64,000 nt of DNA from NCBI GenBank assembly GCA_051047955.1, contig JBPGPT010000033.1:62001-126000 (forward strand). Direction: 5' to 3'. Position numbers and translations under genes: made by a program. The DNA is from Cystobasidiomycetes sp. EMM_F5 (taxonomy: Eukaryota). The notes under the pieces were generated by a model. The model was not told the origin of the DNA, ran no database searches, and worked only from the letters and a program-made list of their open reading frames with translations. Shown piece by piece: positions 9,614 to 62,730 of the stretch. Each line of letters opens with the position of its first letter. Position 1 is the stretch's first letter.

Positions 9614-12356
9614 ATGGTCGACGCTGCGAAAAGCCGCACATCCTCATCCACATCATCACAGTCGACGAACCACGGACACAGCGGTGCTATGGGCATCGCG
9701 CCGGAAGCCATGTCCGCGGGAGAGGAGCTGAGGGATTTGCAGGGACTATCGCTCAACAGCTCGCCGGTCAAGGCATCTCCGAGCAACCAGACGCGCGCAT
9801 CGTCGTCGGATCCTGCTGAAAGTGTGCCAGGAATGCCCATGTTTGTCGAATCTGGCGATATGGACGATGTGGATGACGACGACGATGAGGACGGTGGACG
9901 GAAAGGCAAGAAAGGCCAGCCCAACCCTGGACGTCGGAAGATTGAGATTGAGTATATCGAGGATAAGGCAGGTCGTCAGATGCTTGCTCATTGTCGTCTT
10001 GTAAGCGCGACTGACCTGTACGCCACTAGAGTAAAAGACACATCACTTTCAGTAAACGGAAAGCGGGCATCATGAAGAAGGTGCGTCAGCGACTAATGTG
10101 CTAGAAACGGTCCATTCATTATTCTCCTTTACAGGCTTACGAGCTCTCAACCTTGACCGGCACTCAAGTATTGCTCCTGGTCGTATCTGAAACCGGACTT
10201 GTCTACACGTATACCACTACTAAGCTGCAAGCACTAGTTACTGCAAAGGAGGGCAAAGCCCTGATTCAGGTGAGCTGCGAAGAATGTAGAAGCTGGATCA
10301 TACCTTATACTCCATCGCGACAGGCTTGTCTGACAGCCGAAGAAGGGGAGCCACCTTTTGGCAACAAGGCTGACATGCAGCCTGCGCCGACTACGAGAAT
10401 GCGCTCCGATCATCGTAAGGTCAGCATGCAAGTCCGCATGAATGGCAGCAATCATAATCATCACCACGCCGCGAATGGGCACGACCCTGCCATTGGCAAT
10501 CAGTATGCACAAGCGGGCCCGCCTATGAGTCAACCACAACCGTCACCCGGAATACCTCCTGTCAGTATGCAACAGCAGCAAGCTCAATACATGCAACCAT
10601 TGGCACCACAATACGTCTATCCGCAACAAACGATCTCTGGAGCTGCCCTCATGCCTCCATCAGCTCCCATGCAGTATCCGCAGGCTCCGTCCAACCTACC
10701 AATGCCAATGGCAATGACTAGTATTCCGCCGATGCCGATGCCAACCTCGACACCTTTACCTGACACCACGAGCACGAGCCGTACACTGAAGAAGCGTAAG
10801 ACGACCGATAATCTTCGCACAAGCAAGGAGTCACTCGAACAAGCAGAGGCAAAGCGAGCGGAGGCTCTTCAACTGGCGCAAGACTGTCTGGAACAGGCCC
10901 GACAGGTAGGCCGCCCTCAACTTTTCGCGAGTGTAAGTCACTGACGCCGATAAATAGCATGCAACAATTGGCAATCTTCTCAGAGCCTTCCAACAACAAG
11001 ACGTGGCTGCAAGGAGTAAACAGTCGAAAGCGCAGTCTGATGGCGGTATAGCAGAGGGCCTGGACAGTACTATTCAGCTGTTCCAAATGAGCTGCGAAGA
11101 TACCGCTCGGGGCGTCGAGATGGAACAGGCGCGGCTTAGAGGACAGAGATGGATTGACAATGTCGGAGTGGCTCATCTACCGGATGCGATAGACGAATTT
11201 ATTCACGACTTCTTAGGTGAGAAGGCTGGGAGGCTATGCTCCATCTAACGAGAGCTAAATCCTGCGCCGATACTCTGACAGTCAACAAATGCATCAAATC
11301 GCCAAAGGACGTGAAATTAGCAGCAAAAGATCTACAGAACTTTTCGGACTGGCTTTTTGCCCATTCTTTTGCAGGGCCTGACCTCCATCAGCAACTGGTC
11401 GGCCGATGCAATAGCTCTACGAAGTCTGTTATGAAGAAAGCATCGGAGGGCATGCTTCAGCCAGGTGGTATGACGTCCATGTCTCTTCCACCGATGCCGT
11501 TGGCATCAAACGGACTTGTACAGCCAGCGGCCAACCCAGCACTCCGCGCCGAAGTGGCAGGGAAAACGCTCAGTAAGCGACTGATCGTGCTCAAGCGGCC
11601 TTATATAGCTGACGATATTACTGCAGTCGATTACTGCGAGTTTGCTCGGAAGCACTACGAAGGGGTCGGTCAAGAACAAGGTGTCACTGCAGTGAACGGA
11701 TACTTCATTGTTGATCGCGTCAGATCCTCATATGTCATTCTGAGAGGCATTCCGATAGGTGCGTACCGCCGTCGTGAGACGAGGGCTAGGTGCTAAATGC
11801 TATTGGGGTGGCCATCGTAGAGGGTGACCCGCATTCGAACTCTGAGCCTGGACCGTTCAAAGTTAGAATGCCAGCGATTCTTACCTGCAACCTTAGGCCT
11901 CGAGATCAGTTCTTACTCTCCTTGAATCGATACGCGCACATCAATTACTGGTTTCCCACGGCTTGCGGGTGAGTTTAGGCATGGCACTCATGGTCATCCC
12001 ATTTGCTGACATTCTCCACGGTAAGCGATGTGCATCCAACAACGGACGACGATATGGCGGAAGATCCGCTGAACTCTCAATATCACCATATGGAATTGGA
12101 CAAGGCCCAACGGGCGAATGATCAGATGGCCTTCAACTATCACGTTGGCGAATTCCAATTCTGTAGCAAAGCGACACAGCTCATGGATGAAGGGGAATTG
12201 CCCGAAGACGGCTTTGGAGGTGTCAGTGTGCAACAAGTGATGCATCCTCGACCCAGTCAGCCAGACCTGCACGATGCCGCTTCTCGGCCAGTGCGGCGGC
12301 AGCCGTCTCGAGCTGCAAATGGGGGACAAGGGTGGGGAGGGCCGCAGCAATTCTAG
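9614..12356 (+). CDS. MCM1: SRF/Mcm1-type MADS-box transcription factor with an unusual folded C-terminal domain
   Basis: Spliced MADS box GRRKIEIEYIEDKSKRHITFSKRKAGIMKKAYELSTLTGTQVLLLVVSETGLVYTYTT, then a Q/P-rich linker and further in-frame exons to the stop at 12356. Confidence 0.9.
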
Positions 12357-16332: not shown

Positions 16333-18022
<1,690 letters not shown>

Positions 18023-61226: not shown

Positions 61227-62730
61227 TCAAGTCTGTGCTGCCGGGGTGGGCAGCTTCTTCGCTAGGGTACCATTAGCTTCTCCAGACGGTGCTGGCCGTT
61301 TCTTTCTGTTGACCGCCCCTGCGCCCACAGGTGCTTTGCTCAACGACGCTCCACCACCACCCATGAGCCTCCTCAGCGAAGCCATCGGGAACTTTGTGCG
61401 ACACGTTAGGCAGACCGGCAGCGGCGAGCAGAAGACTTAGAGACGACGAAGTACATCAGCATTCGTGCTGATATGACGCGAGGTGCAAGATGCAGTCTAA
61501 ACCTACTTGAGAGGCACACGGAGCAGACGTAGCCAATGTCCACGATTTTCTTGTGACAGAAGCACGCAGCTCGAAGATCTATCTGTTCTTGCGTCGGGAG
61601 ATGCAGATGTCTGCGGACACTCAGACCTGGTAGGAATGCCATGAGAAGGTACTGCAGTAATCCCGCACGGCGTTCTAGTCGATAGTACGAGGCTTTGGTT
61701 AGATGCGAAGCCTGCTGTAGGAAGACTGTATCGTCGCCGAACACTTTGCAAACGTCAATGGGTATGGACTGTTGTGCCACTATTAGCGGCTTGTGTACCA
61801 GGACGATACAGAGTGGACGCGACTTGCCGCTTTCTGTGCCGCGAAAATACAATTCATTATGGAAATGTATTGGGTTGAAGTTTCGCCTGACACGCTCAGA
61901 ACCAATATACGCGATTTGAGCGGAGGCAGGGAATCATCTTTCGACATGCGATTGATGTCTGCGGTGAAGATCTAGTGTTAATATGGACACCCCAGTGGAT
62001 GTGTATGACTGCTTACGGCAGAGGGTCTTTGCCAAAGCGCTCGAAACCGCCACTTGTACTATCGAAGCATTGTCAGACGCCATAGTCCTTCGAAGACCAT
62101 CCGCACTGACCGCTGTGCACATTCTCTGTGCTATCCTGCTCGACCGCCGGATATAATTCTCGAAGACTGTGCACTACCGCTTCATCCAGTATTCGGAAAG
62201 TCTGGTACGAGTTCGAGTCTGCGGCAGCTGCGCCTTCGAGCTGGAGATCTGGAGAAGGTTGGACAGCACCGCTAGACTTGTGCGTAGCTTTTCGCTGCGC
62301 ATGTATAGACGAGTATAGCAGTGTACTGGCACAATGTACATTCCCGTCAATCGCGCGGGCTGAAAGCTTGCAGCATCCCAGCTCACCTCTGTCCTAGACC
62401 AGCAGCGTAGATGACCAGATGATTCTCAAACCTCAAAGCCATGTGTGCGTTTGCCAGGACGAGCATACTTCGGACTGCATCTTCAAAGCTGAGCGAGTCG
62501 ACGATTTCCTTGCCATCTTGACCGCTCGAGCGAGTCTCGATGCCGCACGCATGCCATGCTAGCGGATTGACGTCGAGCTGATAGTGTCAGCGGAGAGAAT
62601 CGTTTGCAAGTCAGCTAGAATAATGGACCGGATCCAGCAGGCCTACTATGATGGCCAATAAATCTGCAGGCGCTGCAGTCTCGCCTTCCACGGCTGATAG
62701 AGCAGCTGCAGGACCAGCTGTGGACGCCAT
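61227..62730 (-). CDS. TFB4: TFIIH subunit Tfb4 (p34)
   Basis: [65 protein letters not shown]..CLTC. Confidence 0.95.

Follow-up and report, generated by a model that had tools for sequence, protein, structure and literature searches.

The 64,000-nucleotide (nt) stretch of DNA analyzed here, from now on called the window, corresponds to positions 62,001 to 126,000 (forward strand) of contig JBPGPT010000033.1 of Cystobasidiomycetes sp. EMM_F5. At 9614-12356 (+) it contains a MADS-box gene in which the MADS box and a low-complexity linker are followed by a conserved folded C-terminal module of about 350 amino acids (aa) with two predicted folds, a helical domain and an OB-fold barrel. Joining the exons by script gave nine exons and an open frame of 2283 nt encoding 760 aa, with the ATG at 9614 and the stop codon at 12354-12356. 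The exons are located at 9614-9967, 10030-10080, 10135-10269, 10324-10905, 10958-11216, 11282-11572, 11627-11758, 11821-11968, and 12026-12356. A tblastn search identified a single MADS box and a single module within the 64 kb of the window.

The eight introns of the gene are 52-65 nt long, seven of them being GT-AG and one GC-AG, and a CTGAC-type branch site is visible in several. Intron 1 (9968-10029) has the GC donor (GCAGGT..AG), which is the sole choice that keeps the frame and joins EDK to SKRHITF, a sequence that is uninterrupted in the closest complete relative, P0007. The introns at 10270-10323 and 11573-11626, the former just past the MADS extension and the latter in the helix before the OB barrel, are both 54 nt long, in frame and stop-free, and the retention of either would add 18 residues while keeping the frame.

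The MADS box and its C-terminal extension (aa 106-190, 9929-10353, +) showed 96% identity to P0007 and are split by intron 1 and by the introns 10081-10134 and 10270-10323. The Pfam profile PF00319 (SRF-TF) gave 26.9 bits on the window exon (cut-off 26), although this exon covers no more than positions 23-48 of the profile, and 76.7 bits on P0007. The nearest solved sequences to P0007 were yeast Mcm1 (1mnm, E 1.4e-33) and SRF (E 1.5e-32), whereas MEF2 chains reached only about 1e-10; at the level of sequence, this places the box in the SRF/Mcm1 type and not in the MEF2 type. The gene resembles those of Mcm1 and SRF in the combination of MADS box and SRF-type extension, in an N-terminal acidic stretch and in a Q-rich region past the box. 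The tails of Mcm1 and SRF are regarded as disordered, and the difference is that a conserved folded module of about 350 aa is added here to the tail.

Between box and module, the translation is first a low-complexity linker rich in Q, P, and M (aa 191-330, 10354-10773, +; 41% identity to P0007) and then a basic motif and a helix leading to the module (aa 331-374, 10774-10905, +; 61%). The basic motif, RTLKKRKT, is found at 10780-10800, immediately 5' of the module, and the family alignment indicated that it is kept in P0012 (from Mixia osmundae), P0031, P0014, and P0020-22; it may act like a nuclear localization signal. The protein ends in a poorly conserved tail (aa 723-760, 12240-12353, +) with 26% identity to P0007.

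Continuity of the MADS box and the module

P0007, which was found with one module exon as query, is an uninterrupted protein of 771 aa encoded on a 4332-nt contig. It also carries PF00319. Its alignment with the spliced model of the window gave 439 identities in 715 positions (61%, E 0.0), collinear over the eight junctions and with no gap at any of them. Since P0007 is uninterrupted but its genomic relatives have introns at the same places, it is best taken as a spliced transcript. The relatives in genomic DNA point in the same direction. In P0008, from a metagenome, one continuous open reading frame (ORF) links the MADS extension, the linker, and the module, passing through two in-frame introns at positions matching those of the window. 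The genomic ORFs of P0014, P0020, P0021, and P0022 run unbroken from the linker into the first module exon; that of P0020 begins already in the MADS box.

Intron 4 (10906-10957, +), a 52-nt GT..CTGAC..AG intron, lies exactly between linker and module. The alternative that a short MCM1 gene and a separate downstream gene had been wrongly joined at this point was considered, as retention of the intron would end translation at an in-frame stop (10945-10947) immediately before the module. However, the junction has no intergenic space, start codon or promoter-sized gap. In addition, intron 4 is missing in P0008, P0014, and P0020-22, where a single ORF crosses that point, P0007 is continuous there, and species of Mixia, Microbotryum, and Phenoliferia share the fusion. 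Two adjacent genes are thus an extremely improbable explanation. Because P0007 is collinear, the ORFs of the relatives are continuous and the same fusion appears in three species, the comparison of sequences confirmed that MADS box, linker, and module belong to one gene, as the earlier note on this DNA had proposed.

The protein resulting from retention of intron 4 would be an ordinary short Mcm1-like one. A switch at this intron between isoforms with and without the module is possible.

Predicted structure of the C-terminal module

No significant Pfam family was detected for the module exons, for P0007 outside its MADS box or for 11 aligned family members. A model predicted by AlphaFold2 from residues 372-718 of P0007 and an alignment of 23 rows had a mean pLDDT (predicted local distance difference test score) of 82.9, and a second AlphaFold model of the module reached 70.9. 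In the first, residues 4-130 are helical, 134-166 are disordered, and 169-190 form a further helix. Five strands lie between 201 and 277, the third being followed by a short helix, and residues 291-328 make up two long helices.

Transferred to the window, the predicted helical domain spans aa 375-507 (10958-11421, +; intron 11217-11281 falls inside it), with a tyrosine-recombinase N-terminal core-binding or SAM-like fold and 59% identity to P0007. It is followed by a disordered loop rich in S and P (aa 508-545, 11422-11535, +; pLDDT below 50; 42%), and then by a predicted unit of helix, OB-fold barrel, and C-terminal helical hairpin (aa 546-722, 11536-12239, +) that is interrupted by the introns 11573-11626, 11759-11820, and 11969-12025. 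The predicted barrel strands are encoded at 11686-12035 (aa 578-654), and the hairpin ends with a conserved GELPEDGF motif. Identity to P0007 was 79% for helix and barrel and 74% for the C-terminal helices, and strands 3 and 5 of the barrel contain near-invariant K, R, and W residues. These values, set beside the 41, 42, and 26% of linker, loop, and final tail, show the module to be under purifying selection as a folded unit.

The earlier note had described a domain with a helical part and a beta-rich, OB-fold-like part, and both folds appeared in the AlphaFold model. All the peptide strings quoted in it are likewise present in the spliced 760-aa model. The dimensions had to be corrected: the folded region has five exons instead of four, its conserved part reaches about 12239 and not 12038, and it measures about 350 aa in place of 280-300, about 35 of them belonging to a disordered loop.

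Regarding the second of the two folds, the model contains a five-stranded closed barrel with a helix between strands 3 and 4, and structural matches to OB proteins were obtained. With respect to known OB-fold proteins (the anticodon-binding domain of AspRS/AsnRS, RPA, SSB, PriB, RecO, and HIN), no sequence similarity was detected and no family stands out; the barrel differs in being flanked by helices of its own and in carrying a conserved acidic GEL..DG motif. The helical fold can in turn be superposed, as a predicted structure, on the solved core-binding domains of tyrosine recombinases such as lambda Int, XerC/D, and Cre (PDB 3nrw, 1p7d, 2oxo, and 1a0p). It differs from them in two extra helical elements and in being net acidic, in the lack of significant sequence similarity, and in that the predicted OB barrel stands in place of the catalytic domain. 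Indeed, no integrase catalytic family was found in Pfam at E ≤ 10 among the 11 family members, and what follows the helical domain is the barrel and its helices. Foldseek searches against the PDB gave no match at E ≤ 0.001 for either model of the module.

Structural matches to the helical domain also included the MRG domain (MRG15, Eaf3, and MSL3). These had a lower Z than the recombinase core-binding domains, which scored about 2 Z units above MRG and spanned the whole target; in addition, no chromo barrel is present here and no sequence link to MRG was found.

The identity of the module with Arb1 (PF09692) was also considered and rejected, as this family gave no match at E ≤ 10 in any of the 11 members or in P0007. 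The lead had come from an Atlas feature search with values of 0.78-0.80, which shuffled proteins reached a third of the time. The same type of search gave no usable match for P0032.

Distribution and origin of the family

To study the distribution of the module, 1.84 billion representatives were searched exhaustively with HMMER (E ≤ 0.001), the query being residues 372-718 of P0007. The search yielded 27 matches, mostly exon-sized fragments of close relatives. Three divergent matches were full-length, P0012 (962 aa), P0033 (778 aa), and P0034 (655 aa), and upstream of the module all of them carry a MADS box of the SRF type (PF00319). They come from Mixia osmundae, Microbotryum intermedium, and a Phenoliferia sp., respectively, all of which are Pucciniomycotina, so that the three matches for which the source gives a species are without exception fungal MADS fusions. 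Five other divergent matches (P0029-P0032 and P0035) have no MADS box in the ORF, and the unnamed divergent matches show low-complexity linkers of the same eukaryote type. A remnant of the MADS extension opens P0031, and the same basic motif comes before the module, so that P0031 has the appearance of one exon from a fused gene.

P0029, a 402-aa protein encoded on a metagenome contig of 1830 nt, is a divergent copy of the entire module; its ORF has a start of its own and lacks a MADS box, and it may be a stand-alone form of the module. P0019 (2761 aa, E 2.8e-28 over 18 stretches) was discarded as a relative, since its score adds up numerous weak matches between its repeats and a single helix of the query; this secreted-looking protein consists of about 18 near-identical helical repeats of about 146 aa.

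In the earlier note, the domain had been likened to a family of bacterial hypothetical proteins, and a stand-alone bacterial protein was supposed to have been captured by horizontal transfer, to have gained introns and to have been fused to MCM1. The helical fold is common in bacterial and phage integrases, and the helix motif on which that likeness was based does lie in this part of the module. However, none of the 27 matches was recognizably prokaryotic; as the library carries no taxonomy, this absence is inferred and not proven. The family profile did not reach any bacterial PDB sequence significantly, and the eukaryote-type linkers of the divergent matches, as well as the basic motif and MADS-extension remnant of P0031, argue in the same sense. 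Furthermore, the fusion is common to three classes of Pucciniomycotina and is therefore old. All these data make a bacterial capture very improbable. Hence, from the earlier interpretation the fusion of a MADS box to a folded module holds, and the resemblance to a bacterial family and the captured, intronized domain are abandoned. Judged by its sequences, the family represents an old, lineage-restricted MADS architecture, so far with all its members of named species in Pucciniomycotina.

With respect to the source of the DNA, a GAPDH exon of the window (16502-16879, −) matched at 100% identity an NCBI protein that bears the label Cystobasidiomycetes sp. EMM_F5, and this label fits the named range of the module family because Cystobasidiomycetes is a class of Pucciniomycotina. 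The other named top matches of the exon were all from Ascomycota (83-87%), and no basidiomycete was present in the best 120. GAPDH may be uninformative in this case; otherwise, the organism label or the history of the gene merits a check.

Proposed function and significance

MADS-box factors are the textbook example of combinatorial control through separate partners, and outside plants they are taken to consist of a DNA-binding domain and a disordered tail. Mcm1 and SRF gain their specificity through separate cofactors. On balance, we consider that the gene probably encodes an SRF/Mcm1 MADS factor of a small, old fungal subfamily, with the module as an accessory and most likely nucleic-acid-contacting unit. 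By homology with Mcm1 and SRF, the MADS dimer would bind CArG-type sites, and the module, which a flexible linker of about 180 aa holds in cis, would be a built-in accessory unit in place of their separate cofactors. Since both predicted folds are classical nucleic-acid binders, the preferred mode is a second, accessory contact with nucleic acid beside the MADS site, which would be made by the recombinase-like helices and by the face of conserved K, R, and W residues on the OB barrel. As an alternative mode, the module may dock a partner or associate with itself.

Several data weigh against a nucleic-acid contact of this kind. The module of the window protein is net acidic (−3 in the helical domain, −2 in helix and OB barrel, and −8 in the C-terminal helices), which does not favor DNA binding. 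In addition, the sequence tests of the recombinase link were not significant. The only PDB match of the family profile at E ≤ 10 was the N-terminal domain of XerD (E 1), the Pfam family Phage_int_SAM_5 was reached by one of the 11 members at E 0.29, and hhalign against XerD, XerC, lambda Int, Cre, and P2 Int gave a probability of 0.9% and E 0.06 in a different register, both profiles being shallow. The likeness is therefore stated by fold only: the modeled helical domain is recombinase-core-binding-like and not a proven member of that family.

Together with the MRG-like structural matches described above, the acidic charge leaves room for a module devoted to protein-protein interaction or oligomerization. 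The helical domain would then work like an MRG domain and dock a partner peptide or a chromatin-modifying complex, and the OB barrel with its flanking helices would join the tails of one MADS dimer or of two dimers. The K domain of the MIKC-type plant factors offers a comparison for the latter, as these proteins combine a MADS box with a second structured region downstream, the same order as here. Nevertheless, the K domain is a tetramerization coiled coil unrelated in fold, and the MADS box of those factors is of the MEF2-like type. Against an interaction module stand the higher Z and complete coverage of the recombinase core-binding domains, the fact that the weak sequence pointers (XerD and Phage_int_SAM_5) lead only to recombinase N-terminal domains, and the near-invariant K, R, and W of the barrel, which are typical of nucleic-acid-binding OB faces. 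Accordingly weighed, an interaction or oligomerization unit seems doubtful, docking or self-association being roughly half as likely as nucleic-acid contact.

The closest precedent for the preferred nucleic-acid contact is given by the ALOG proteins of plants, in which a recombinase's N-terminal DNA-binding domain was recruited as a transcription-factor domain (Iyer and Aravind 2012, PMC3537659). In what this source describes, the ALOG domain is also a recombinase-type N-terminal domain in a transcription regulator without the catalytic domain, and its top structural templates, 3nrw and 1a0p, are also top matches of the helical domain studied here; the ALOG domain differs in its zinc-ribbon insert and in its profile-level link to the recombinases of DIRS1-type retroposons (PMC3537659). 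The helical domain of the window has neither a zinc ribbon nor a significant profile link, and its fusion partners are a MADS box and an OB fold. A more speculative origin, which we regard as unlikely, is that the module is the exapted DNA-binding head of a tyrosine-recombinase mobile element (Crypton- or DIRS-like) joined to an OB fold. If this were true, the protein would be a two-headed factor of a basidiomycete lineage, which reads in cis both a CArG box and another element, DNA or single-stranded. It would parallel plant ALOG in the fungi and offer, in fused form, an alternative to the cofactors that are separate in Mcm1 and SRF. To the transcription-factor domains that derive from selfish DNA it would add a fungal example.

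No description of a fusion between a MADS box and a module of this kind came up in literature searches, and text passages of a eukaryote-wide MADS survey make no mention of an extra domain in fungal SRF-type proteins (PMC10484287). In public databases the relatives are labelled as MADS-box domain-containing or hypothetical proteins and the module is unnamed. It is relevant for annotation that the module is invisible to Pfam and that unannotated DNA supplied most of the relatives found, as pieces the size of an exon. The module would be a new domain family for Pfam and InterPro. Finally, a conserved subfamily that has a folded two-domain module of its own would represent a different solution to the selection of partners or sites, one that is fused in cis.
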